NCBI GenBank assembly: GCA_964508495.1
Contig: CAZDUA010000031.1
Coordinates: 1-62,141 of the forward strand
Length of the DNA stretch: 62,141 nt
Direction: 5' to 3'
From: an uncultured Methanosarcinales archaeon
Lineage (GTDB): Archaea; Nanobdellota; Nanobdellia; Woesearchaeales; ARS49
Shown: positions 8,776-59,858 of the stretch, one piece after another
Layout of the letters: each line of letters begins with the position of its first letter
Numbering within the stretch: the stretch's first letter is position 1
Notes under the pieces: generated by a model
Told to the model about the DNA's origin: nothing
Seen by the model: the letters and a program-made list of their open reading frames with translations, nothing else
Databases searched by the model: none
Position numbers and translations under genes: made by a program

Positions 8776-9732
8776 ATGAAGCGTAAAATAAACAGGGTTG
8801 GAACGTCAACTTTGACTGTTTCACTGCCGAGCAAGTGGGCCCAGAAATATGCCTTGAAGCCGGGACAAGAAGTTGAAGTTTTTGAAGAGGGCAGAATTGT
8901 GCACATTTCCGCAGGCGCAAATGTCAGGAAGGGCAATAAGACGATCATCAATATTGATGAATTCAATGCTCTTATGGTTAACAGGCTTCTTAACGAACTT
9001 TACAATTCAGGTGTTGACGAGATCATTATTAACTTCTCAAAGCCCACGGTTCCTAATTACAAAACTGGAGAATCTGTTGAAGTAGAGAAGTACATTAATA
9101 GGCTTCTTCCCAGATTTATAGGTCTTGAAATAGTATCTCAAACGCCTGGCAAGATTATATTGCAAAACCTGCTTCCGGTAGAAAAAACAGAAAAGCTGGA
9201 TGTAATTCAAAAGCGTACTTATTTTCTTATCAAGGAATTCTTAAGCGAATTTATCAAGAACTTGAACAATTTCAGTAGTTTTTATCCAAAAGTCTATGAT
9301 TACCATGATGCCGTGGATAGGTTCATTAATTATTATCTGAGGTTAATCTCTGCATCAGATTTAGGCGAGCATCAAAAGGCAAGAGCGGCTACGTTTTATG
9401 AGAGAATAAAGACAGTATTGGATAAAGTTAGGCACACTAGCGAAAGGCTTTCAGAAATGAAGATGATTACTCCAAAGATAAAGTCTTATGTTGCTGAAAT
9501 CTTCAATTACTATATGTCCCAGTTTGACTTTATTTTCAAATCAGGCATAACTACAAAGGAAGTCGATGGTATCGTAAAAAAAAGATATGAACTCGTCAAT
9601 AAAATTAATCAAGAAAGGTTTAATGAGAGAGAAGCAAGAGTGATTTGGGAGTGCAGGAGCATGGTTGATACAATTGTTGAATTTCTTGATGAGTACATTC
9701 AATTGAATTCTGAGAGCTTTAGAGCTGCTTGA
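8776..9732 (+). CDS. AbrB/MazE-like DNA-binding domain + PhoU-like helical domain regulator (archaeal phosphate-uptake regulator family)
   Basis: MKRKINRVGTSTLTVSLPSKWAQKYALKPGQEV N-terminus; GLEIVSQT; helical C-terminus. ATG 8776 is a likelier start than 8755. Confidence 0.75.
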   Translation: MKRKINRVGTSTLTVSLPSKWAQKYALKPGQEVEVFEEGRIVHISAGANVRKGNKTIINIDEFNALMVNRLLNELYNSGVDEIIINFSKPTVPNYKTGESVEVEKYINRLLPRFIGLEIVSQTPGKIILQNLLPVEKTEKLDVIQKRTYFLIKEFLSEFIKNLNNFSSFYPKVYDYHDAVDRFINYYLRLISASDLGEHQKARAATFYERIKTVLDKVRHTSERLSEMKMITPKIKSYVAEIFNYYMSQFDFIFKSGITTKEVDGIVKKRYELVNKINQERFNEREARVIWECRSMVDTIVEFLDEYIQLNSESFRAA

Positions 9733-10873
9733 GTTTTTTTAAGGTTTCTTGCAGGACTTTTTTAGCGCTAATCTGACAAGGATATTCATCTCTCAAAGTA
9801 TGGCCATTTTTTAGAAAAGTTCTCAGGGAAGTAATATAGTTGATTCTTCGCGATTCATGGTCAAGAAGCCCAGTTGGCTGGCAAAGATAAGCTGCTGCTG
9901 CGAGTAATGCTTGGAACTCTCTGGCTGATTCTGGCTGGCTTCTTAAGTAATATCTTAATTTTCCTTTCTCACTTACGTACTCCTCTTTTTCCACCTGCAT
10001 GCATGCTTTTTCAAGTTCTGAAAACTTTTCAAGAAGTTCTTCTTGATATTCAATTGCTGGCTTTTTCTCATTCAGCGATTTCACTCTCTCACCGATTTTT
10101 TCTCGTCTAACTGCTTTATCTGGTGAGTTGTCAATCAGATGCTGACCCGTTAGTTGCTCATAGAGTACCAATCCAACTGACCATGCGTCATAATCATCCG
10201 CCCATTCCTTTGCTCCGAGATAGATTTCCGGAGGTCCATATGTTAGTGAGCCCCACATGCCGTCAAATTCTTGTGTTGCAAGACCAAAATCCACAAGGTA
10301 CGGTTTTGAATTTTCGCTTAAAACAATGTTCTCTGGGCGTATATCTCGGTGAAATATGGGGTTTGGAATTGTGATTCCAGAATACGCCCATTTCATCTGC
10401 AAAATTACTAAGGCGTCAAATAAGCCCTTTGCGATAGCTGGAAAATCTTTAATTTGGTGACTTAAACCCAATTTTCCATCAATTACAGTACGTAGCGATG
10501 GAACTCCAAAATGATGGCTTCTGGGGAGCAGATAAGACCATTTTGGAAGGCGCGTGAATAAAATTCCTGTATAATCTCCTTTAATTGGTACCACGTCTTC
10601 TATTTTCGCTATGTTATCATGGTCATCAAGCCAGGCGAGTATTTTTGCCTCATTTTTTGTACGCTCTACAGGGTCGAGTTTTGAATGTTCATACCCTGAA
10701 AGAGGTACATCCGGACCTAGTAAATCGTGAGGCAAGTTGACTTTCAAAAGATTTACAAGATTCACCCTTGCACGTTTTACTACGTACATCTCTGACAAGT
10801 TTCCAGAGGGAAGCTCACCTAAAACTTCCATCCCATCATGTATTACGTCCCCTGCTTGCAATATCTTACCCAT
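9719..10873 (-). CDS. Ser/Thr protein kinase (Hanks type)
   Basis: HRDIRPENIV catalytic loop, DFGL, YGPPE, DAWSVGLVLYE. Confidence 0.8.
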   Translation of the reverse strand: MGKILQAGDVIHDGMEVLGELPSGNLSEMYVVKRARVNLVNLLKVNLPHDLLGPDVPLSGYEHSKLDPVERTKNEAKILAWLDDHDNIAKIEDVVPIKGDYTGILFTRLPKWSYLLPRSHHFGVPSLRTVIDGKLGLSHQIKDFPAIAKGLFDALVILQMKWAYSGITIPNPIFHRDIRPENIVLSENSKPYLVDFGLATQEFDGMWGSLTYGPPEIYLGAKEWADDYDAWSVGLVLYEQLTGQHLIDNSPDKAVRREKIGERVKSLNEKKPAIEYQEELLEKFSELEKACMQVEKEEYVSEKGKLRYYLRSQPESAREFQALLAAAAYLCQPTGLLDHESRRINYITSLRTFLKNGHTLRDEYPCQISAKKVLQETLKKLKQL

Positions 10874-12614
10874 TTTTGCCTATATCGGTTTTTCTCAGTT
10901 CATAAGAATTTTGAAGCGTTTGAATCGTTTGTGCAACGCGATAATTGTACGGCGATTCAATATCTCGTGCATCCTTGCCGCCAAAGAATGAATTATCAAA
11001 AAAACAATTTGACATGATGAATTCGATAATCGATTGGGCGCCGTCGATAAGTGCGGCATCCTTCAAAGTGTTAAAAAAATTGTGCTGATAGAACAAATTG
11101 AGCTTATTTTTGGTTTCAGTATCGATCTTCAATTGTTCTTTCTCAAAATATTCCGCACATTCTTTTGGATTGAAATCAATTGCTTTTACAACGTTAGCAA
11201 GCGGATTTTTAATTACGCCCTCAATTCCTTCTCGTACATTGTTAAGAAGTTTTTGTTGCTGGTCAATCATGAATGTCATATACTGATCAGGTTCTTTCAC
11301 TTTATCAATCTCTTTTGATGAGAAGAATTTGTTACCAGTAAGCATTTCATAAAGTATGACTCCTAAAGACCATAAATTATCACGCGGCACAACGTCATAT
11401 GCTGTTTTGTTGCGCGATAGTTTGAGCATGCGAGGTGATGCATAATCGATAGGCCAGTGTTTCCAAATTTCTTTTGTGTCGTATATTGCATCGTTAAAAT
11501 CCGTTAGTTTTACACCGTCTTTGTCAATTCCAACATTGTGGGGTGCGAGATCGTAATGCATTATTCCACGCTCATGGCAAGCTGCCAGCGCAGTCAGCAT
11601 TTGTTCAAAGTAAAGCATTGCATCAGAAAATTTAATCCGTGATCCGCTATTCTCAAGTTTTTCTTTCAATGTTTGTTCGAAGGGTTCCATTGGCAATACG
11701 AATTTGCCTTCCATCTCAAATGGATCATAATAGGTAACTATGTTTGGGTGTCTAAGTTCTCGCAGTTTTTCGATATTTCTGACAACCGCGTCTATTGGAA
11801 CGTCCTGATTAACTATTTTAACTGCAACTTCTCCTGAATACTTGTTTTGCGCTAGATATACATCGCTGACGCGTCCACTGCCGAGCTTTCTAAGAGGATT
11901 GTAATTTGAGGGCAATTCTAATTTTGCAAGCTCGATTATTTCCTCAAGCGGCATTCTTTCTTCTTTTGCCTCCTCTTTTTTCATGTAGTTGATTATCTTT
12001 CTCAGTTTACTATTTGTTAGAATCAGATGCACCGCTTTTGCAAAGTTTGGATCAGTTTGGTATGCTGTTGTTCCGCAGAATATGGCTGTTTTCTTGATAA
12101 AGTCCAGTTTTTCAGGCAGTTTATCTTCTTGCTCGATGAATCTGGTGTAGGGCAGTTCTCTGCCTTCTGCGAAAATGAAGTCAATTGCGCTGAAAAACTC
12201 GCTTGAGACCGGTTCAGGTAATTTTTCCAAAGGTTCTTTTATTTCAGTTAATATTTCTACAAGGGTGTCAAGACAAGCATTCGATTTTTGTGCAATTTCT
12301 TCTTTTTCTTTGTCTACTTTTTCTCCATCATATTCCAGAAATTGAAGGGTATCGCTTACTGACACATATCTCGCAGCATGCATTGAAATTGTGTCCATGG
12401 CTTTTTGTTTCAGTGAAGAGCCTACATATGACTTGACAAATCTGAACGTTTTTCTATATGCCTGCTGCTCTTCTGATGGAAGGTCTGGCCTATCTTCATC
12501 TATCCACTCATGTTCTACATTACTGAAGAATTCATCCAGTCCTTTGCGGATGGCTTTCATTGCGCCTTCTATATTCTTCCTGCGTATGTCTTCCTCGCTG
12601 TCAAAGTCACCCAT
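10866..12614 (-). CDS. Ser/Thr protein kinase-like protein with N-terminal helical domain; degenerate motifs
   Basis: LGSGRVSDVY, VAVK, HPNIVTYYD, HYDLAPHNV, DFN, YASPR, LWSLGVILYE. Confidence 0.75.
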   Translation of the reverse strand: MGDFDSEEDIRRKNIEGAMKAIRKGLDEFFSNVEHEWIDEDRPDLPSEEQQAYRKTFRFVKSYVGSSLKQKAMDTISMHAARYVSVSDTLQFLEYDGEKVDKEKEEIAQKSNACLDTLVEILTEIKEPLEKLPEPVSSEFFSAIDFIFAEGRELPYTRFIEQEDKLPEKLDFIKKTAIFCGTTAYQTDPNFAKAVHLILTNSKLRKIINYMKKEEAKEERMPLEEIIELAKLELPSNYNPLRKLGSGRVSDVYLAQNKYSGEVAVKIVNQDVPIDAVVRNIEKLRELRHPNIVTYYDPFEMEGKFVLPMEPFEQTLKEKLENSGSRIKFSDAMLYFEQMLTALAACHERGIMHYDLAPHNVGIDKDGVKLTDFNDAIYDTKEIWKHWPIDYASPRMLKLSRNKTAYDVVPRDNLWSLGVILYEMLTGNKFFSSKEIDKVKEPDQYMTFMIDQQQKLLNNVREGIEGVIKNPLANVVKAIDFNPKECAEYFEKEQLKIDTETKNKLNLFYQHNFFNTLKDAALIDGAQSIIEFIMSNCFFDNSFFGGKDARDIESPYNYRVAQTIQTLQNSYELRKTDIGKNG

Positions 12615-36747: not shown

Positions 36748-38442
36748 TTAGAAGAAGGTATTGTACAATTCTTTGACCTTATTGCCTACATTTATCCAGA
36801 ATTCCTGGCCTGGCTTGGTTAGAACGCTTCCGGCAGCTATACCGCTTGCTGCTACAGCAGCTGCTCCCCATGCCATTAATTTTTGTTTGCTGACTCCCAT
36901 AAATGGTGCGTGCCTGAATGACTCTTCAATGTAGCTTTCAGCTGTAAATGTTGGCTCATCTTTTACTTTGCGTATGTCATTTGATGCTTTAATTTGAGCG
37001 TATACGCGTTTTGGCTTTTTGCCCTGTTGTATAAGTTTAAGGTCTTCTACTGCGTCTTCTGGCTTCTGGTATCTATAATTAGGGTCTTTTTGCATTAGTG
37101 CTGCTGTGACTAGCACAAGGTATTTGTTTACTTCTGGAGCTTCTGGTTTGTGTTCTCTGTGTTTTGAGTTGTACATTCTGTCTGATGGGTCGTTTCTTCT
37201 GTCATCCGGCATGTTGTGGTTTGGGCTTCTTCCTGTTAGATAGAAGTATAATGTAAGTCCCAGTGAGCACAAGTCGCTTCTCGTGTCGGATTCTGTTAAT
37301 GAGTGTGCCTGTTCAGGTGCTATGTAATCTGGTGTTCCCATGACTGTTTGTTCGGTTGTTGCAAAGCTTTTGTCAAGGTATACTGTGTCCGCTTTTGCTT
37401 GGCCGTTTTTCTTGTTGTATTTCATCAATCCCCAGTCTATGAAGTTTGCTTCTGTGGCTGGTATTGTTTTGTCCCAAGTCCAGAATAGGAATCTTTGGTG
37501 GACTGTTCTTCGTGATCTTTGAAGCATGATGTTTTGTGGCTTGATGTCTCTGTGCACTACGCCTATTTCTGAAAAGTCAGCAATTTCTTCTGCAAGTGCA
37601 GTTACCACTCTTACTTTATCGTCGAGGGACATTTCCCGGGGGGCATCGTACCAATTCAACGGATCTTTTATCATCTTGGCCACAGTGTAGAGTTTGTTGC
37701 CTTGTGTTTTTCCGTGCATGAGCATCGTAACGGAGTTCTCAGTATCTCTGCCCGCCATATTGAGCTCTCTTTTTGCTCTTGCTTCCAATTGTTTTCTTGC
37801 TGCCGCGTCTCCGTTTGGGCTGACTATTTTTACTGCAACTCTGGCCTTCTCTCCATCTTTGTCTTTTCTGACTAGTCCTTTGATTTTGCGGAGTTCTGCT
37901 CTTCCGGTTTCACTTAGTTGTTTGAGTGTTTGATCTTGCAATACTTCCATTGCATCTTTTATGAATGTGCGCGGGATTCGTCTGACTGTTTTGTATGCTT
38001 CTTCTGGTATTTCATCGTTTGAAAATTCTGCCAGTCCCCATGCTGCGCGTGGCGCGAGTAGTCTTAGCCATCCTTCTTTGTCCAGTTTTTCGAAATCTAT
38101 TGTTCCTTCTGATACGAGTGCTTGGCCTCCTGCTCCCAGAAGCCTATATGATAAGGTGAGCCAGGGTAGGTGGCCGCCAAATTCAGCGTCATACATTCTG
38201 CCAGTCTGGTTGGTTATTGCATCAATTGTTTCATATGCTGTTAGAACTGTGTGTTTTGCTGATACTATTAGCCTGTCTTCTGGTGGCGGAAGTGAGAGTG
38301 ATGTGAAAGATGCCTGTCTTTCTTTGTACAGTCTGTCTATCGCTTCATCGACAAACTTCTCGCCCTGTTGTTCTTTATAGCCAGCTAGAAGTTCATCTAG
38401 CTGCTTGTTCATTTCATCTGTAGAGCGCTGTTTCTGTATCAT
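36748..38442 (-). CDS. Ser/Thr protein kinase (PknB-like) with C-terminal hydrophobic anchor
   Basis: LGAGGQA, VAVK, HRDIKPQNI, DWG, GTPDYIAPEQ, DLCSLG, RYQ; terminal WGAAAVAASGIAAGSV. Confidence 0.9.
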   Translation of the reverse strand: MIQKQRSTDEMNKQLDELLAGYKEQQGEKFVDEAIDRLYKERQASFTSLSLPPPEDRLIVSAKHTVLTAYETIDAITNQTGRMYDAEFGGHLPWLTLSYRLLGAGGQALVSEGTIDFEKLDKEGWLRLLAPRAAWGLAEFSNDEIPEEAYKTVRRIPRTFIKDAMEVLQDQTLKQLSETGRAELRKIKGLVRKDKDGEKARVAVKIVSPNGDAAARKQLEARAKRELNMAGRDTENSVTMLMHGKTQGNKLYTVAKMIKDPLNWYDAPREMSLDDKVRVVTALAEEIADFSEIGVVHRDIKPQNIMLQRSRRTVHQRFLFWTWDKTIPATEANFIDWGLMKYNKKNGQAKADTVYLDKSFATTEQTVMGTPDYIAPEQAHSLTESDTRSDLCSLGLTLYFYLTGRSPNHNMPDDRRNDPSDRMYNSKHREHKPEAPEVNKYLVLVTAALMQKDPNYRYQKPEDAVEDLKLIQQGKKPKRVYAQIKASNDIRKVKDEPTFTAESYIEESFRHAPFMGVSKQKLMAWGAAAVAASGIAAGSVLTKPGQEFWINVGNKVKELYNTFF

Positions 38443-44567: not shown

Positions 44568-47015
44568 TTGAAAAAAGGGGAATTCTTAGTAATAGGCGGT
44601 GAAGACAACAGTATGACGAATGATTTAGAAGGCAGAATGGATGAAAATAAAGGTCCGCCTACTGGTAAGCCTCCAGTTATTTCTCATGAGAAAACAGAAT
44701 TTTCTCCTCAAATTACCACTCCCAAGCCTCCAGATACTACAAAGCACGCGTTTCCGCTTCTTGGTTCAAATTTTGGTGGCGTGCAGGTTATTGAGAACCT
44801 GAAAAAGGGCGGAATGGCGGATGTCTACAAAGGAATTGACACTAAAACCGGAATGCCTGTAATCTTCAAGGCATTAAAGCCTGAATTTTATGATCAAGCA
44901 GAGGCAAAAAAGCGTTTCCTGCAGGATGCTGAATCAACTTCCAGGTTAAAGCATTCTCATATTGTTGAAACGCTTCGTCATGGAGAGCACAACGGCATTC
45001 CTTTTATAGTTTACAAGGAAATTCCTGGCGTTAAGGATTTGAGCGAATTTTTGAAGCCTGGAAGCGACATCATAATTGGACTTGAAGATTCTGTGAACAT
45101 AGCGATTCAAACATCTGAAGCCTTAATGTACTCGCACAGTGAGGGAATTGTTCATCGTGATTTCAAGCCAGGCAACGTCTTATACAATCCAATTACGCGG
45201 ATTGCAATTTTGATTGATTATGGAATTGCAAAGAGCCAGGATGAGGCTATGACGCAGGCAAGGCAGCCAATGGGTACTTTGTCGTACATGGCTCCTGAGC
45301 AGGCGCAGGATTCTTCAACAGTTACCGGCGCAGCTGACTTATACTCTTGGGGTTGCGTGTTGTATGAACTGCTCTCACGTACAACTCCTAACGAAAAAAA
45401 GACAAACGATCCTAATCATCTTTTCACTAACAGAAAGCTCACAGAGGTGCCTTTTGAGCACTGGTTGAATGATGCCATAGATATTAGAAGAAATGAATTG
45501 TCTGAACAGCTTAAAGATGAGAAAGATCCGTTTAACAAGCAGAAAATCCAGTCTTTGCTGGACGTCTTAGTGCCTGTTAGCGATGACCTTGAAGATCTTG
45601 TTATGATGGTTATGAATGCCAAGAATCCCAAGGACAGGCCTCCTTTCTACATTATGGCGCAAAGACTGCATGATCTAACTTCAAGTAATGGCCTGCTTCG
45701 CTCAATGAATACTGATGAGGACAAACGAATTAATGCAGAGAAGCAGAAAAAGTTCGAGGAAGTGGTTAAGAAAAACAAGGAGGATTTGGCGAAGATTTCA
45801 GATAAAGAGACAGAGAAAAAGAATGTCGCGACTTTATTCCTTGCGCGTTCTTTGGAAGCTCTTGCTGAAGCCACTCCGCGGTCTGATGATGCGCGTGCTG
45901 CTCATGCTCATGAAGCATTTGAATGTTATTCTAAAGTTCAAAGTGCATTGCAGTTGCACAAACGTGCAGGTGATGCCACGCTTGATGAGGTTGATGATTC
46001 TGCTGGTTGGATGAGCGCGTTTAATAATAATGAGCAGACAAGAAAACACCATCGTGAGACGAAAGTTCTTGAGAGAGAGCTTGTTGGCGTTGTTAAGGAT
46101 GCCGAAGAGGCTTTCAAGAAGAATGATATTGCTGGATTGAGCAAAACATATGGAGTTATTCCTCATAGCAGAGTGCCATTGGCTCTGAAACATCGTATTG
46201 ATGCTTTGACTCTCAGTATTGAGCAGGCTGTTCTTTCCGCATTAACTTCTGGTTTGACCGCTAGTGCTGAGGGCAATTTGAGTGTTGCCAAGGATAATTA
46301 TCGTGTTGCTTCTGTTTTCAGCGAGATGCTTCCTGAGGCTTCAAAGGATACTAAGGACAAGGTTGGAAAATTCCATCAGACTCTTCAGACTGGCGAGATT
46401 AGGCGTTTAATGAAGGATTATGAGGGTGCAAGGGGCAATGTCGATTATTTTGCGATGTATGTTTGTGCTGAAAGGATTGGCGAGTGCGCCAGGGATTTGC
46501 CTTTGGAAATATCTGGAACTTTCAAGAAGACTGCTGATGATTATATGAAAAAGCTTGAAGGCCACGATGATGACATTAGAATTTTGATAGGTTTGAAGAA
46601 GAGCGCTAAGGAGCTTCGTGAGAAGTATGATGCAGAGCTTGCCAGCTCAGAGAGGGACATTTCGTTGAATGGCCAGAGTCAAACAGGCCTTGCTCTTTTG
46701 ACAGAGGAAAGAGTTAATGATTATTTCACTAAAGTTAATGATAAAATTCAAAAGTTTGACAGTTCTGTTAAAAAGGAAAAGATTGGTCCTGAGTATGACA
46801 AGTTTAAGCAGACGCTGGCAGATTTTGTCGAGGACGTTAAGGCGGAACAGTATGCTTTGAAGCTTGGCACTGGTGATTTTGCTGCTCGTGCTGAAACTTT
46901 CTTCAATTTGATTTTGCATCACAACAGGCGCGAAAATGGTCCTAAGGAAAGGATGTATATTACTGGCTACAAGGCTTTGTTGACTGAGCGCGAGAAACAG
47001 ATTCCGTCTCAATAA
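44568..47015 (+). CDS. Ser/Thr protein kinase with long C-terminal helical (coiled-coil/TPR-like) region; start may be ATG 44613
   Basis: GGMADVY, HSHIV, HRDFKPGNV, DYGIAK, GTLSYMAPEQ, DLYSWGCVLYE, DRP. Confidence 0.9.
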   Translation: MKKGEFLVIGGEDNSMTNDLEGRMDENKGPPTGKPPVISHEKTEFSPQITTPKPPDTTKHAFPLLGSNFGGVQVIENLKKGGMADVYKGIDTKTGMPVIFKALKPEFYDQAEAKKRFLQDAESTSRLKHSHIVETLRHGEHNGIPFIVYKEIPGVKDLSEFLKPGSDIIIGLEDSVNIAIQTSEALMYSHSEGIVHRDFKPGNVLYNPITRIAILIDYGIAKSQDEAMTQARQPMGTLSYMAPEQAQDSSTVTGAADLYSWGCVLYELLSRTTPNEKKTNDPNHLFTNRKLTEVPFEHWLNDAIDIRRNELSEQLKDEKDPFNKQKIQSLLDVLVPVSDDLEDLVMMVMNAKNPKDRPPFYIMAQRLHDLTSSNGLLRSMNTDEDKRINAEKQKKFEEVVKKNKEDLAKISDKETEKKNVATLFLARSLEALAEATPRSDDARAAHAHEAFECYSKVQSALQLHKRAGDATLDEVDDSAGWMSAFNNNEQTRKHHRETKVLERELVGVVKDAEEAFKKNDIAGLSKTYGVIPHSRVPLALKHRIDALTLSIEQAVLSALTSGLTASAEGNLSVAKDNYRVASVFSEMLPEASKDTKDKVGKFHQTLQTGEIRRLMKDYEGARGNVDYFAMYVCAERIGECARDLPLEISGTFKKTADDYMKKLEGHDDDIRILIGLKKSAKELREKYDAELASSERDISLNGQSQTGLALLTEERVNDYFTKVNDKIQKFDSSVKKEKIGPEYDKFKQTLADFVEDVKAEQYALKLGTGDFAARAETFFNLILHHNRRENGPKERMYITGYKALLTEREKQIPSQ

Positions 47016-54790: not shown

Positions 54791-56218
54791 ATGGACCTTT
54801 TTGAGAAGTGTTTGGCCGGAGGCCATCGTTCTAAGTTTACGATTACTGGCCAGACTGTTTTGAAATATAATATTAGTCCTTTTCTTGTTTGGTGTAATGC
54901 TTTTGCTCCTCCAGAGGAGAGGGAGCCTGAAAGCAAGTACATGCATTTGTTGTTCGAGCGTGGTATTGATCATGAGAAAGCCGTGCGCGCTTCTCTCTAC
55001 AAGGATGCTGTTCAAATTCCCATCGTTTCGTTTGAGACTGGTTTCCAGCAGGTCTTGGAGGAGTGCAAGAAAGGCGTTCGTGTTTTGACTAGCGCTCCAA
55101 TTTTTTATTTGCAGGAAGATGTATATGGTATTACTGATGTTTTGGAGAAAAGTAATTCTCATGCAAGTGTTTTTGGAAGTCATCATTATGTTGTGAAGGA
55201 GATTAAGAGTGCGAAGCACATTAAGCACGAGTACATTATGCAGACTGCTTTCTATAATTATGTTCTTGGCAAGATTCAGGGTTTTACTCCGCCCAAATTC
55301 TATTTGATAAATAGAGAGCAGAAGGAGTTTGAGTATTCTTTTGAGAATTATGAGGAGGAATTGAAATTAACTTTGGCTGACATTAAGGAAATTTTTAATG
55401 GCAAGAAGGTTTCTCCTACCGCTAAGTCTTGTAAGTGGCCTTGGGGGGCGTATTGCAACAGGCAGGCGATTGAGGCTAACGATGTTTCTATTATTCCTAG
55501 TGTTGGTCCTGCTTTGAAGAGCCAGTTGAATTCTGTTGGCATTATGACTATTCAACAGCTTGCTTCCCAGCCTGTTAATCTTGATATTACTGAGAATACT
55601 TTGAAGAAAATAAAATTGTACGCGCAGGCGTGGGTTGATAAAAAGCCGATTGTTTTGTCAAAACCGAAGTTGCTTAAATCTGAAGTCGAACTTTTCTTGG
55701 ATTTTGAGGGCACTGATGAGTTGCAAACTGAGGAAGGCTTGGTTAAGGTTGATTATTTGATTGGCTTGTTGATTAAGGACGATTCCGGCGCTCATTTCAG
55801 GCCTTTTGTTGCTGAGAATTTGGCTGATGAGGGCAGGATGTTGCACGAATTCTTGGCTTATATGAAAAAATTTCCTGACGCGCCTATTTATCATTATGGT
55901 CCTTATGAGAAAACGCATTTTCGTGCTTTGAGTGAGAAGTACAAGGTTGACTTGTCGGATATTTTGAAGAGAATGGTTGATGTTTTATCATTGGTTAAGA
56001 AGAATGTTATTTTTCCTACTTTGACGATGTCTTTGAAGGAGATTTCTAAGTTTTTGGGCTTCAGGTACAGGGGTATGGCTGACGCGCAGGAAAGTATTGT
56101 TTTGTACTTGCAGTTTTTGGAAACTAAAGAAAGGGAGTTGTTGCAGCGTATTCTTGATTATAATGAGGACGACGTAAGGGCGACAATGATAATCAAGGAT
56201 TATATTTCTAATCTTTGA
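54791..56218 (+). CDS. TM0106-family RecB-like nuclease with HhH and C-terminal RNase H-like domain
   Basis: RGIDHE, GITDVLEK...EIKSAK...QTAFY (PD-(D/E)xK), IPSVG HhH, FLDFEGT, YHYGPYE, YNEDDV. Confidence 0.85.
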   Translation: MDLFEKCLAGGHRSKFTITGQTVLKYNISPFLVWCNAFAPPEEREPESKYMHLLFERGIDHEKAVRASLYKDAVQIPIVSFETGFQQVLEECKKGVRVLTSAPIFYLQEDVYGITDVLEKSNSHASVFGSHHYVVKEIKSAKHIKHEYIMQTAFYNYVLGKIQGFTPPKFYLINREQKEFEYSFENYEEELKLTLADIKEIFNGKKVSPTAKSCKWPWGAYCNRQAIEANDVSIIPSVGPALKSQLNSVGIMTIQQLASQPVNLDITENTLKKIKLYAQAWVDKKPIVLSKPKLLKSEVELFLDFEGTDELQTEEGLVKVDYLIGLLIKDDSGAHFRPFVAENLADEGRMLHEFLAYMKKFPDAPIYHYGPYEKTHFRALSEKYKVDLSDILKRMVDVLSLVKKNVIFPTLTMSLKEISKFLGFRYRGMADAQESIVLYLQFLETKERELLQRILDYNEDDVRATMIIKDYISNL

Positions 56219-57863
56219 GTGAGAGAACTTCGTATACGATTAGTTCTTTTTCTTTGCCTTTAACTTTTAACGGCTCTAATTTCTTGACTTCAACTTTGTC
56301 TTTTATGAGTTTGTATGTTGACTCTGTGATCATTATTTGTCCGCCTGATGCTGTTCCGCTTAGTCGTGATGATGTGTTTACTGTGTCGCCTATTGCTGTG
56401 AATTCTTGTCTTTGTTTGCTTCCCATGTTTCCTACGACTGCTGGTCCTGAGCAGATTCCTATTCCTAAGTTAATCTTTGGCATGTCTTTTCTGTGTTGTG
56501 TTTTTAGTCCTTCTTGGATTTCCAGCGCGCATTTTACTGCTTTGTAAGCGTGGTCTTTGTCTGGCAGAGGCGATCCCCATACTGCGAATAGTGCATCGCC
56601 AACATATTTGTCAAGCGTGCCTTCATGCTTGAAAATCAAGTCCGTCATGTCTCCGAAATAGTGGTTGAGGAATGAGATGACTTGGTGCGGAGTCATTTTT
56701 TCTGATAGAGATGTAAATCCTCTTATGTCTGCGAACATTGCTGTGATTTCTCTTTCTACTCCTCCTAGTTCTATTGATTTTTCGCTTTTTAGGAGGTGTG
56801 TTACTACGTCTTTTGAGACGTATCTGCCGAATAGTCCGAGTATGTGTTTTTTGTGTTTTGCTTCGCTTGCTGCAACGTATGCTGTTGTTGTAAGCGATGT
56901 TATGCCTAGTGTTAATATTGGGTAAACTAGGTTGAGGATGATGCCTTTGTCGAAATAATAGATTGCTATTCCAATGTAAATTATTGTTACTGCAAAGAGT
57001 ATTGCTGCGCTTTTCCAGACGTTTAGTATTGTTAAAAGAATTCCTGTGATTATTGAGAGAACCAGTATTACTATTATTAGTGATGTTAGTTTTTGGTGCG
57101 TGAGATATTGTTTTGTGAGTATTGTTTGTACCGCGCTCGCGTGGATTTCTACTCCCGGCATTCTCTGCCCTTGTGATGTCGGGACTAAATAGTCATCGTG
57201 CAGGTCTGGTGCTGTTGCGCCGATGAAGATTATTGCGTTTTCGAATTCGCTTTCAGGTATTTTTCCGTTTATGACGTCTGATGCCGAGTATCTTTTGTAT
57301 ACTCCTGGTTTTGAGGCAAAGTTTACTAATAGTTTTTGTTGTGGTATTGTTAGCTCTCGTCCAACGTATTCTTGTGCTGCCTGCAAGGCCAGTGATGGCT
57401 GTTCGTTTAGTTTGACTGGTATGTTTCTGCCTATTCCGTCTTGGTCTGTGTAAACGTTTACCATTCCTGTTGGTATGTTCTCAAATCCCGACGTTGGAAT
57501 AAGCTCTGTTTTTCTCGTGAAGTCGTACTCTCTTGCAATTATCACGTTGCCCGCTTGTCTCATTGATTCGCCCAATGCTTTGTCGTCTTCTGTTGGTTCA
57601 AAGAAGGCGATATCAAAAGCAACAACTTTCGCTTGCCCAGTATGGTTTAGAAGTTTGATGAATTCTGCTCTTGGCCATGGCCATCTTCCGATTTCTTGTA
57701 GGCTTTTGTCATCGATTGTTATTATTTTAATATTTTCTAGTGCTTTGTTTCCTCCGTATAACGTGTCTGTTACTCGTAAGTTCCACGTGTAGAAGAAGCC
57801 TGCTTTTGCAAGAATTATCAGGAGTATTCCTGTCAGCAGTGCCACTATTATGGCGCGTTTCAT
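56208..57863 (-). CDS. CHASE2-domain membrane class III adenylate cyclase
   Basis: IDDKSL...GRWPWPR, FDIAF, GATA..LHD, PGVEIHA (CHASE2); 3 TM; FADIRGFT, DKYVGD, TAIGDTVNTSSRL, KGK. Confidence 0.92.
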   Translation of the reverse strand: MKRAIIVALLTGILLIILAKAGFFYTWNLRVTDTLYGGNKALENIKIITIDDKSLQEIGRWPWPRAEFIKLLNHTGQAKVVAFDIAFFEPTEDDKALGESMRQAGNVIIAREYDFTRKTELIPTSGFENIPTGMVNVYTDQDGIGRNIPVKLNEQPSLALQAAQEYVGRELTIPQQKLLVNFASKPGVYKRYSASDVINGKIPESEFENAIIFIGATAPDLHDDYLVPTSQGQRMPGVEIHASAVQTILTKQYLTHQKLTSLIIVILVLSIITGILLTILNVWKSAAILFAVTIIYIGIAIYYFDKGIILNLVYPILTLGITSLTTTAYVAASEAKHKKHILGLFGRYVSKDVVTHLLKSEKSIELGGVEREITAMFADIRGFTSLSEKMTPHQVISFLNHYFGDMTDLIFKHEGTLDKYVGDALFAVWGSPLPDKDHAYKAVKCALEIQEGLKTQHRKDMPKINLGIGICSGPAVVGNMGSKQRQEFTAIGDTVNTSSRLSGTASGGQIMITESTYKLIKDKVEVKKLEPLKVKGKEKELIVYEVLSLKD

Positions 57864-58678
57864 TTAAGTTTTGCTTTTATGCGTTTTATTTCTTTAGTCA
57901 GCATGTATGCGCGTTTTGCTTTTGGCTTCATCATGCTTGGCACTTCTTGGTAGAGTTTGTCTTCGTCTTGCCTGCCTTCATCTATTTCGTTGAGGTCGTG
58001 CTGTATTCTTTCTTGGTTATAGCCTTTGCCTTCTGCTGCTTTCATCAACATTTTGTTCTTCTTGATTTCTCGTGCTCTGAGCTTTTGCAGAATTTTGACG
58101 TACTTGCCACCAAATTCTTGGAACTTTTGCATTTGCGCTTCCGTCATGTCTTGTTCTTCCATTGTTTTCAGCATGCGTTTCATCTTTTGGACTTTGTGCC
58201 TTTCAGCTTTGTCTCGTTGTCCGTAATCGACTTCTCCGTCTGCAACTTCCAGTTCTTCGTCGTTAATCATGAATTCTGTTCCTCGCACTGTTGCTACTGT
58301 GCTTGGAGTTTCTATTGTGTATTCTGATATTCCTGATAATTTTGTAACTTTGTTCCAAGTCTCTCCTGCGAGTTGTGTGACTTTGACTTTGTCTTTGCTT
58401 ACAATGTCTAGTTGCACTTGGCTGTTCGGCTGCAAGTGCATTATTTCTCCTTCGTAGAATACTACTGTTGCTTCTCCACTTGTTGTTTTGACTTGTGTTC
58501 CTTGTGATAGTTCCATTTCATCTGCGCCTGGCTCCCAGCCTGCTCCTGTGTTGACTTCCACATTTCCGCTTTCAACGTATAATATTGCGGCTGTTGCTGG
58601 TTTTGGTGCGACTACAAAAAAGTAGAATCCGCCTGTAATTAGCAGGATTATCAGTGCTGCGCTGATGAGCTTCTTCAT
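57860..58678 (-). CDS. FecR-domain protein with N-terminal membrane anchor
   Basis: GNVEV, TIETPSTVATVRGTEF, VADGEV; ATGA overlap with the cyclase gene. Confidence 0.8.
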   Translation of the reverse strand: MKKLISAALIILLITGGFYFFVVAPKPATAAILYVESGNVEVNTGAGWEPGADEMELSQGTQVKTTSGEATVVFYEGEIMHLQPNSQVQLDIVSKDKVKVTQLAGETWNKVTKLSGISEYTIETPSTVATVRGTEFMINDEELEVADGEVDYGQRDKAERHKVQKMKRMLKTMEEQDMTEAQMQKFQEFGGKYVKILQKLRAREIKKNKMLMKAAEGKGYNQERIQHDLNEIDEGRQDEDKLYQEVPSMMKPKAKRAYMLTKEIKRIKAKLK

Positions 58679-58751
58679 ATGCCCTGGTTAAGACGGGAGG
58701 TTTAAAAAGCTTTGCAGAAATAATATATAGTTAGGTGCATTATGTCTTCTG

Positions 58752-59858
58752 ATGCGAACTTACGTATTGCTGCTATTATTTTTGCTGGCTTGTGCTCCTG
58801 CGCACCAGCCTGTTGTTAATGAGACTTCTGAGAAGAAGATGGAGTCTCTTGCAACTCTTGCCGTTCATAGCGGTGAGGTTTTTGTTAATGATGGTTCTGC
58901 TTCTGCGGGCATGGATTTGCACGCTGGTGATATTATTAAGACCATGGCTAAGTCAAAGGCCTCTGTTGTGTTTTTTGACAGTTCTGTTTTGAGGTTGGAC
59001 GAGAATACTGAGATTGTTGTAAAGAAGCTTGCTAAGGGCAGTGTTGATTTGAAGCAGAGTGCTGGCCAGACTTGGTCTCGTGTTTTGAAGCTTAGCGGCA
59101 TTCAGGAATATACGATTGAGACTCCTAATACTGTTGCTACTGTTCGCGGCACTGGTTTTGCAGTCAAGGTTTCCGACGGTGATACTAAGGTCATGGTTAA
59201 AGAGGGTAAAGTCCGTGTCGTTTCTTTTGAAGAGAATGTCATGGTTGCTGAAGCTATGGTTACTGAGAATATGGGGATGATTGTGACTGATGAAGCTCCT
59301 TCTGAAATGGAAATGGAGTTCATGGGAGCTGAATCTTGGGTTGATGAGAATTTTGCTGCTGATGACGAGTTCATTGATGAAGTCGTGCATGATTATATGG
59401 AAGAAAATTCTGAATTGTTCGCTAAGATGAATTTGACTGCTGAGGAGATGGAAGCGAGTGTTGAGGATTTTGCTACCGGCCAAGTTGATGAGATTGGAGA
59501 AATTGCTGAAGAACCTGTTGAGGAAGTTATTGAGCAACCAGAAGAGGTTGTTGAAGAGCCAATTGCTGACGTTCCAGCCGAGGATTTGCCTGAAGAGCCT
59601 CTCTGCAAGGATTTATGTGGAGATGGGGTCTGTGCAGAGATAGTCTGTTTGGCAATTGGTTGTCCGTGCGCTGAAACTCCGGATTCATGTCCGCAGGACT
59701 GTAAGCAGATAAGTTTTGACATAACCAATTTCGACGAGTGCGCCAGGGCAGGGTTTCCGATAATGGAATCCTACCCGCGCCAGTGCAGGAGTTCTGATGG
59801 AAGGACTTTTGTTGAAGAGCCGGTTCATAACGAGCCTCCAGCCAATTCAGTGGTCTAA
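58752..59858 (+). CDS. FecR-domain lipoprotein-like protein with acidic linker and Cys-rich C-terminal modules
   Basis: LLLFLLAC; GDIIKT, SVLRLDENT, IETPNTVATVRGTGF, VKEGKV; CGDGVC...CPQDC; ITNFDECARAGFPIMESYPRQC. Confidence 0.8.
   Translation: MRTYVLLLLFLLACAPAHQPVVNETSEKKMESLATLAVHSGEVFVNDGSASAGMDLHAGDIIKTMAKSKASVVFFDSSVLRLDENTEIVVKKLAKGSVDLKQSAGQTWSRVLKLSGIQEYTIETPNTVATVRGTGFAVKVSDGDTKVMVKEGKVRVVSFEENVMVAEAMVTENMGMIVTDEAPSEMEMEFMGAESWVDENFAADDEFIDEVVHDYMEENSELFAKMNLTAEEMEASVEDFATGQVDEIGEIAEEPVEEVIEQPEEVVEEPIADVPAEDLPEEPLCKDLCGDGVCAEIVCLAIGCPCAETPDSCPQDCKQISFDITNFDECARAGFPIMESYPRQCRSSDGRTFVEEPVHNEPPANSVV

Follow-up and report, generated by a model that had tools for sequence, protein, structure and literature searches.

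A FecR-domain gene coupled to the gene for a predicted CHASE2 receptor adenylate cyclase in a DPANN-type archaeon

The only CHASE2 adenylate cyclases for which experimental data exist are CyaD1, CyaD2 and CyaK of Sinorhizobium meliloti, which have been studied together with NsrA and Clr (PMC5498481, PMC13001267). It was shown that these cyclases respond to a protein signal of the plant host (PMC13001267), and that CyaD1 deprived of its CHASE2 domain synthesizes cyclic AMP (cAMP) constitutively (PMC5498481). A gene cluster of Campylobacterota encodes a CHASE2 adenylate cyclase together with a phosphodiesterase, a FecR-domain protein and a TPR protein (Mo et al. 2022, PMC9239204); its products were inferred to act in one pathway and the cluster to have spread by horizontal transfer (PMC9239204). 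In Burkholderia the BiofilmReg operon codes for a response regulator, a LysM-FecR protein and a CHASE2 histidine kinase (PMC5192318). Here we describe a related locus in a stretch of archaeal DNA of 62,141 nucleotides (contig CAZDUA010000031.1, hereafter the window), which belongs to an 880-kb metagenome-assembled genome of 37 contigs from freshwater sediment. A fecR-like gene, FecR-A, lies directly upstream of and on the same strand as a gene for a CHASE2 class III cyclase, and a second FecR-domain gene, FecR-B, is transcribed divergently across 73 nucleotides. The two-gene operon probably encodes a transmembrane receptor adenylate cyclase with a dedicated extracellular partner, next to which the FecR-B paralogue is found. 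The module is real, conserved and uncharacterised, and its architecture is already known from bacterial genomics.

All three open reading frames (ORFs) are intact (Table 1), and the stop codon of FecR-A overlaps the start codon of the cyclase gene in an ATGA (AAATGAAAC on the minus strand), in keeping with the translational coupling proposed in the initial annotation. The domain calls made there were borne out as well. The cyclase scored 166.2 bits for CHASE2 (cut-off 26.3), the match spanning profile positions 3-255 of 257, and 114.9 bits for Guanylate_cyc (cut-off 21.9), while FecR-A and FecR-B scored 40.7 and 56.4 bits for PF04773 (cut-off 24). Hydropathy and the AlphaFold model of the cyclase (mean predicted local distance difference test, pLDDT, 89.6) agree on one transmembrane (TM) helix, an ectodomain, three TM helices, a long linker helix and a catalytic domain, so that an alpha/beta CHASE2 ectodomain is bounded by one N-terminal and three C-terminal TM helices and followed by a cytoplasmic output. 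The catalytic residues, previously reported as intact, were found to be D379 and D423 (metal), K419 and T489 (substrate), and N496 and R500 (transition state), T489 being seven positions before N496, and all six are invariant across 61 homologues. Both metal Asp residues and the transition-state Asn and Arg are thus present in one chain, as in the homodimeric type of enzyme, and the Lys/Thr pair marks a class IIIb adenylate cyclase, in which Thr replaces the class IIIa Asp; the predicted product is therefore cAMP. The modelled cyclase domain superposes on Synechocystis Cya2 (2W01) with a TM-score of 0.89-0.90 and a root mean square deviation (rmsd) of 1.4-1.5 Å, and also on 5OYH, 3R5G and 1WC1, with TM-scores of 0.8-0.94 when 2W01 is included.

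More than 120 full-length cyclase homologues with 40-93% identity were found, and those with an organism name are all archaeal; NCBI automatic annotation already covers the archaeal cyclase and FecR proteins. About half of the archaeal cyclase orthologues (L017-L030, P0109, P0117) form a "long" subfamily of 620-680 amino acids with a C-terminal extension of about 80 residues beyond the cyclase domain. The window's own family is represented in both the short and the long subfamilies, which therefore points to paralogy or to transfer within the phylum.

The model of FecR-A (pLDDT 87.8, predicted template modelling score 0.84) and its hydropathy both place a TM helix from residue 3-4 onward, and in the model the C-terminus forms a helical bundle whose basic tail (32 Lys and Arg against 20 Asp and Glu) is conserved among the homologues, of which 73 were collected. 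In a Foldseek search the best matches of the protein were the periplasmic domains of anti-sigma proteins, 4M0N and PupR 6OVK (probability 1.0); a sequence search of the PDB gave a chance match alone (E 0.8). As the TM helix begins at residue 3-4, FecR-A has no cytoplasmic anti-sigma domain, and it has no STN part. Against the FecR equivalog model PRK09774 of NCBIfam, FecR-B reached 16.9 bits (cut-off 385) and FecR-A gave no match. Despite its FecR fold, FecR-A is thus not a FecR-type anti-sigma factor, since it lacks both the cytoplasmic domain and the STN part.

The initial annotation had called for a survey of the linkage in DPANN genomes. The pair was examined at 33 archaeal loci, 30 of them drawn from 401 genomes that sample the phylum evenly and three from public assemblies, with cyclase identities of 38-100%. 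At every one of the 33 loci a FecR ORF lies upstream on the same strand, and the objection foreseen in the initial annotation, a linkage that is not conserved, clearly does not hold. The two genes overlap by 4 nucleotides at 12 loci, the gap is at most 40 nucleotides at 30, and at a single locus it reaches 742 nucleotides; the genes around the pair vary from lineage to lineage. The FecR-A and cyclase distance matrices correlate (Mantel r 0.76), a value that none of 2000 permutations equalled. In the phylum sample CHASE2 was found in 38 of the 401 genomes, in one copy each and always on a cyclase, and 35 of the 37 full-length carriers (about 9% of the sample) also have a Pfam FecR match. Within the window's own family the pair is present in 19 of 28 sampled genomes, or about two-thirds. 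A DPANN-type FecR-CHASE2 cyclase pair was also seen on a contig titled uncultured Methanosarcinales archaeon (L100, CAZNVD010000017.1); its FecR matches the archaeal hidden Markov model (HMM) with E 3e-66 and the pair nests inside the Woesearchaeota clade, and the contig is probably a mis-binned one and not a source of a methanogen gene.

Full-length homologues of the cyclase with 28-40% identity occur in many bacterial phyla. In a survey in which one genome per species was scanned and FecR neighbours were sought with an HMM derived from the FecR proteins of archaea, a FecR gene was found directly upstream of the cyclase gene at 19 of 71 evaluable bacterial loci and within 3 kb at 33 of 71, counts that are probably underestimates, the HMM being archaeal. 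Thus, of the earlier suggestion of an uncharacterised archaeal system, what stands is a real, conserved and uncharacterised module, and what does not is its novelty, as the same pairing is found in many bacterial phyla and has been described (PMC9239204, PMC5192318). Judged by sequence, the pairing is an archaeal version of a bacterial-type module, and neither an archaeal invention nor a new kind of system. A FastTree phylogeny was built from 111 cyclases, among which all 35 archaeal ones fall into one clade (support 100) within the bacterial diversity; the simplest reading is a single old acquisition, after which the pair was inherited together. A placement of bacteria of the Candidate Phyla Radiation (CPR) as the nearest neighbour (FastTree support 91) was not reproduced and is not claimed.

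The neighbouring FecR-B is a paralogue of FecR-A (43% identity over 120 amino acids, E 1e-25), and the KLSGIxEY and TIETPxTVATVRGT motifs noticed earlier were found to be shared by both proteins as one continuous KLSGIxEYTIETPxTVATVRGT. Its description as a lipoprotein-like protein with a Cys-rich C-terminus was also confirmed, since it starts with a lipobox-like signal (FLLAC) and its final 78 residues contain 8 Cys, its final 87 residues 10. The FecR domain is followed by a strongly acidic linker with 42 Asp and Glu against 2 Lys and Arg in 125 amino acids. The C-terminal part had no Pfam match even at E 0.1. For its end, a module of about 35 residues (FDECARAGFPIMESYPRQC..DGRTF) that has no Pfam model of its own, matches with 70-90% identity that span about 10% of the query were obtained among secreted proteins of CPR bacteria and Nanoarchaeota, named as Patescibacteria, Parcubacteria, Buchananbacteria or Nanoarchaeota; these proteins carry Gmad2 (PF10648), DUF333 (PF03891) or Kazal domains. 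About 15 FecR-bearing orthologues of FecR-B, with 39-62% identity, were also found. Lipobox-like starts (FLLAC, FLVAC, LLLAC) are seen on several predicted secreted proteins of this genome (58752-58810 in the window; 2038-2430 and 7672-8235 on contig C27), which points to processing of the lipobox type in a DPANN archaeon.

A divergent FecR-B gene next to the pair was found in the window and at three further loci (L007, L133 and, with one extra ORF between, L132). Two genomes of the same genus (L009, L010) have no FecR-B beside the pair, and in a lineage with 52% identity the orthologue is on the same contig as the pair, about 55 kb from it. FecR-B thus recurs as a paralogue whose linkage varies, being adjacent in one subclade and absent or distant elsewhere, and it does not form a constant part of the module.

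In the mechanism that we propose, FecR-A would span the membrane once and be synthesized together with the cyclase, with its FecR domain and basic helical tail outside the cell, where it would bind the CHASE2 ectodomain or present a ligand to it. By analogy with Sinorhizobium CyaD1, CHASE2 may keep the enzyme off until the signal arrives; the signal would then be relayed to the catalytic dimer by the three TM helices and by the conserved linker helix, whose FGRYVSKDVV motif is also present in Cya2, and cAMP would rise. Host contact as this signal, suggested in the initial annotation, would be a conjecture. FecR-B, with its opposite charge and Cys-rich module, might modulate FecR-A or compete with it, which is speculative.

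In this genome the cAMP may be read by a protein encoded elsewhere. A search for cyclic nucleotide monophosphate (cNMP)-binding effectors, which the initial annotation had recommended, found one: the sole PF00027 ORF of the genome (L118, C27:3708-4181) codes for a stand-alone cNMP-binding protein of 157 amino acids with an intact FGELAL...RTA cassette, and appears to be the only recognisable cAMP reader there. Its gene is 4 nucleotides upstream of a gene for an AI-2E-family permease, the two forming a pair at C27:3708-5274 which is kept at 9 of 12 loci examined, in at least five families of the order and mostly with overlapping stop and start codons, and which is a candidate for a cyclic-nucleotide-regulated transporter. 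Two cyclase-domain genes are present in the genome. The second, on contig C1 (45314-45961, minus strand; L002), codes for a class III protein of 215 amino acids of the Lys/Asp type, with a C-terminal TM anchor and no sensor domain. No CYTH cyclase and no GAF_2 domain were found in the genome. A metallophosphoesterase gene two genes from the second cyclase (C1:42211-43386) was considered as a phosphodiesterase and not adopted, having no specific NCBIfam match.

Several results weigh against the proposed receptor and its output. No gene for a phosphodiesterase, which the initial annotation had also advised to look for, was recognised in the genome. Of the 37 carrier genomes, 31 are without any PF00027 domain, and several genomes have the pair of cNMP-binding protein and permease without any cyclase match, so that this output route is not a general one. 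FecR occurs without CHASE2 in 14 genomes, and FecR proteins therefore also work outside the CHASE2 pairing; the genome-level co-occurrence of the two domains, though strong (odds ratio 437, Fisher p 1.5e-36), is uncorrected for phylogeny. In a short free IQ-TREE search, in which deep relationships are weakly resolved, the archaeal cyclases split in two; this split was set aside because a tree constrained to archaeal monophyly was better by 24.8 log-likelihood units and was not rejected by the approximately unbiased test (p 0.72). Finally, an RNA-labelled freshwater-sediment run (X7) has a 358-nucleotide contig, 100% identical, inside FecR-B (59238-59595) and a second contig in the adjoining nuclease gene (55800-56070), and none on FecR-A or the cyclase gene, evidence that is too weak for use; DNA carry-over is possible.

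A bolder reading starts from the same results. As most carriers lack a canonical cNMP-binding domain, an unrecognised receptor could read the cAMP, or the cAMP could act extracellularly; the pair would then be the main receptor-type generator of cAMP in Woesearchaeota-like DPANN archaea, sensing a proteinaceous or surface cue from a host or the environment, with, in this lineage, the basic-tailed FecR-A and the acidic, Cys-rich FecR-B as an extracellular two-protein switch of CHASE2. If true, it would be a genuinely new branch of archaeal cyclic-nucleotide signalling, and we regard it as rather unlikely.

It might also be argued that FecR-A is no regulator at all. The best NCBIfam matches of both FecR proteins, all far below cut-off, are the Leptospira adhesins and lipoproteins Lsa33, LipL45 and Lsa19, which together with the FecR genes that occur without CHASE2 and with the more than half of sampled bacterial CHASE2 cyclases that have no FecR within 3 kb would agree with a co-expressed, adhesin-like surface protein, CHASE2 sensing alone and the pairing reflecting shared expression or localisation. 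Such a loose association does not sit well with an arrangement that holds at all archaeal loci, mostly with overlapping codons and in otherwise differing neighbourhoods, or with the correlated distances of FecR-A and the cyclase, and the fact that in Burkholderia FecR is paired with a CHASE2 protein of another output type, a histidine kinase, suggests that its partner is CHASE2 (PMC5192318). We therefore consider an adhesin role without regulation distinctly improbable, and return to FecR-A as the partner of the receptor.

The CHASE2 part itself bears on a third possibility. Across the 61 homologues it has about 20 invariant residues, mostly polar, in the motifs DDxS..GxWPWxR, D84..F87.E89, D220-L-H-D223, P228 and M235.G237.E239, and its conservation equals or exceeds that of the catalytic domain. 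A PDB search by sequence found no relative of the domain at E <= 1e-5, and a fold search with the full cyclase model gave cyclase-domain matches alone among the matches listed and none for CHASE2. Since the Lys/Thr pair places the enzyme in class IIIb, to which CyaC and soluble adenylyl cyclase, both among its solved relatives, also belong, and since Cya2, the relative of known structure closest to it, is a guanylyl cyclase, the enzyme could chiefly respond to bicarbonate or pH, or form a product other than cAMP, with its extracellular parts as a scaffold or localisation device. Such conservation is unexpected for a passive scaffold, and the ATP-type Lys419 and Thr489 are invariant where Cya2 has Glu and Gly, which makes this reading still less probable than an adhesin role and leaves the receptor adenylate cyclase as the preferred one.

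The archaeal setting proposed for the locus holds. Ribosomal protein S4e, which was matched solely in the four archaeal genomes used as controls, is in the bin; a search of the bin for archaeal small-subunit rRNA found none, and the domain assignment therefore rests on S4e and on the neighbourhood genes. The bacterial type of the module, the rarity of class III cyclases that is claimed for archaea (PMC8646023), and the Methanosarcinales label of one homologous contig, probably itself a binning error, might favour bacterial DNA mis-binned into an archaeal genome. This explanation is hardly credible and was rejected, being contradicted by the gene neighbourhoods: a family B DNA polymerase is encoded on the 62-kb contig along with other genes common to its relatives, orthologous pairs adjoin genes of archaeal type (ribosomal L35Ae, L16/L10e, ATP-dependent DNA ligase, archease/RtcB) on contigs of up to 875 kb, and all named close homologues of the cyclase and of FecR are from Woesearchaeota, Nanoarchaeia or Aenigmarchaeota. 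A chimeric assembly or other artefact is likewise unlikely, because two freshwater-sediment DNA runs carry the whole stretch on single contigs. A Pycsar-like anti-virus system, to which the match of the catalytic domain to PADLOC PycC models (best E 3e-28) might point, was rejected as no less remote, because that match is limited to the common cyclase fold and the FecR proteins have no PADLOC match, no cNMP-binding effector gene is adjacent (the sole one being on another contig), the specificity residues are of the purine (ATP) type, and the locus is single-copy and stable in arrangement across the whole order.

In the 73-nucleotide region between the divergent genes, an A/T-rich TATA-like box stands about 20-35 nucleotides before each start, TTTTTAAA for FecR-A and ATAATATATA for FecR-B; we infer that these are putative promoters, suited to short-leader or leaderless archaeal transcripts. 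The neighbours of the pair are a TM0106-type nuclease gene and genes for coiled-coil proteins without a Pfam match. The nuclease gene converges on the cyclase gene, overlapping its 3' end by 11 nucleotides, and is also found beside the pair at L007 and L133. No tRNA and no Rfam family were found in the window. Elsewhere in the window there are four genes for Ser/Thr protein kinases (9719-10873, 10866-12614, 36748-38442 and 44568-47015), which makes it unusually rich in signalling for an 880-kb genome.

Table 1. Features of the FecR-cyclase locus, in window positions (aa, amino acids)
Feature	Position	Strand	Description	Basis
Receptor adenylate cyclase (predicted), 551 aa	56208..57863	(-)	TM1, extracellular CHASE2, 3 TM, linker helix and cytoplasmic class IIIb cyclase domain (predicted)	Pfam, AlphaFold model, homologues
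CHASE2 ectodomain, aa 12-273	57045..57830	(-)		PF05226 E 1.4e-48
Three TM helices, aa ~259-327	56883..57089	(-)	Lead from CHASE2 to the cytoplasmic part	Hydropathy; model helices H259-279, H282-305, H314-346
Class III cyclase catalytic domain, aa 372-540	56244..56750	(-)		PF00211 E 4e-33; aligned with Cya2/6FHT/CyaB
FecR-A, 272 aa	57860..58678	(-)	N-terminal TM anchor, FecR beta domain aa ~30-178, basic helical tail aa 180-271	PF04773, model
Divergent intergenic region, 73 nucleotides	58679..58751			Read from sequence
FecR-B, 368 aa	58752..59858	(+)	Lipobox-like signal FLLAC, FecR domain aa 61-155, acidic linker, Cys-rich C-terminus	PF04773 E 4e-15
FecR-B Cys-rich C-terminal part, aa 282-368	59595..59855	(+)		Composition, homologue matches
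FecR-B C-terminal module of ~35 aa (FDECARAGFPIMESYPRQC...DGRTF)	59760-59855	(+)		Homologue matches
TM0106-family RecB-like nuclease	54791-56218	(+)		TIGR03491, 253 bits

The archaeal class IV candidate Saci_0718 reportedly does not act as a cyclase. As few archaeal cyclases are, moreover, of class III (PMC8646023), archaeal cAMP synthesis is largely an open question. In small-genome archaea of the DPANN type the pair offers a concrete candidate for the regulated synthesis of cAMP, and it is of moderate interest because such synthesis is poorly documented in archaea. The signal of CHASE2 is known in one case alone, among bacteria, and two genes in about 2.5 kb offer a compact place to study how FecR-domain proteins and CHASE2 cooperate.

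Compared with the regulators of the FecR/PupR type (6OVK, 4M0N), FecR-A has the same fold in its beta domain, over about 130 residues with an rmsd of about 3 Å, but lacks the anti-sigma domain and has a helical tail in place of the STN part. Neither extracytoplasmic function sigma factors nor TonB-dependent transducers are known from archaea. Cya2 has the closest solved catalytic domain (35% identity) and shares the FGRY..VV linker motif, but it is a guanylyl cyclase, its specificity positions being Glu/Gly where the archaeal protein has Lys/Thr; native Cya2 is also linked to CHASE2. Like the Sinorhizobium enzymes, the archaeal protein appears to be a receptor adenylate cyclase with a CHASE2 ectodomain, but the Sinorhizobium signal arrives via the outer-membrane barrel NsrA. 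Archaea have no outer membrane. Furthermore, the FecR-domain protein of Sinorhizobium, SMc02177, is encoded by a downstream target gene and is not an operon partner, and its cAMP reader is a CRP-type transcription factor, whereas here the candidate reader is a stand-alone cNMP-binding domain beside a permease. The Burkholderia BiofilmReg operon likewise has the gene for an extracytoplasmic FecR-domain protein directly upstream of a CHASE2 sensor gene, and differs in its output, a histidine kinase with a response regulator, and in the LysM carried by its FecR protein. The Campylobacterota cluster is alike in that a gene for a predicted CHASE2 class III adenylate cyclase stands beside a FecR-domain gene. 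The archaeal cluster differs from it in having no phosphodiesterase or TPR gene, in its host, and in a FecR protein that is anchored by an N-terminal TM helix and whose gene overlaps that of the cyclase.

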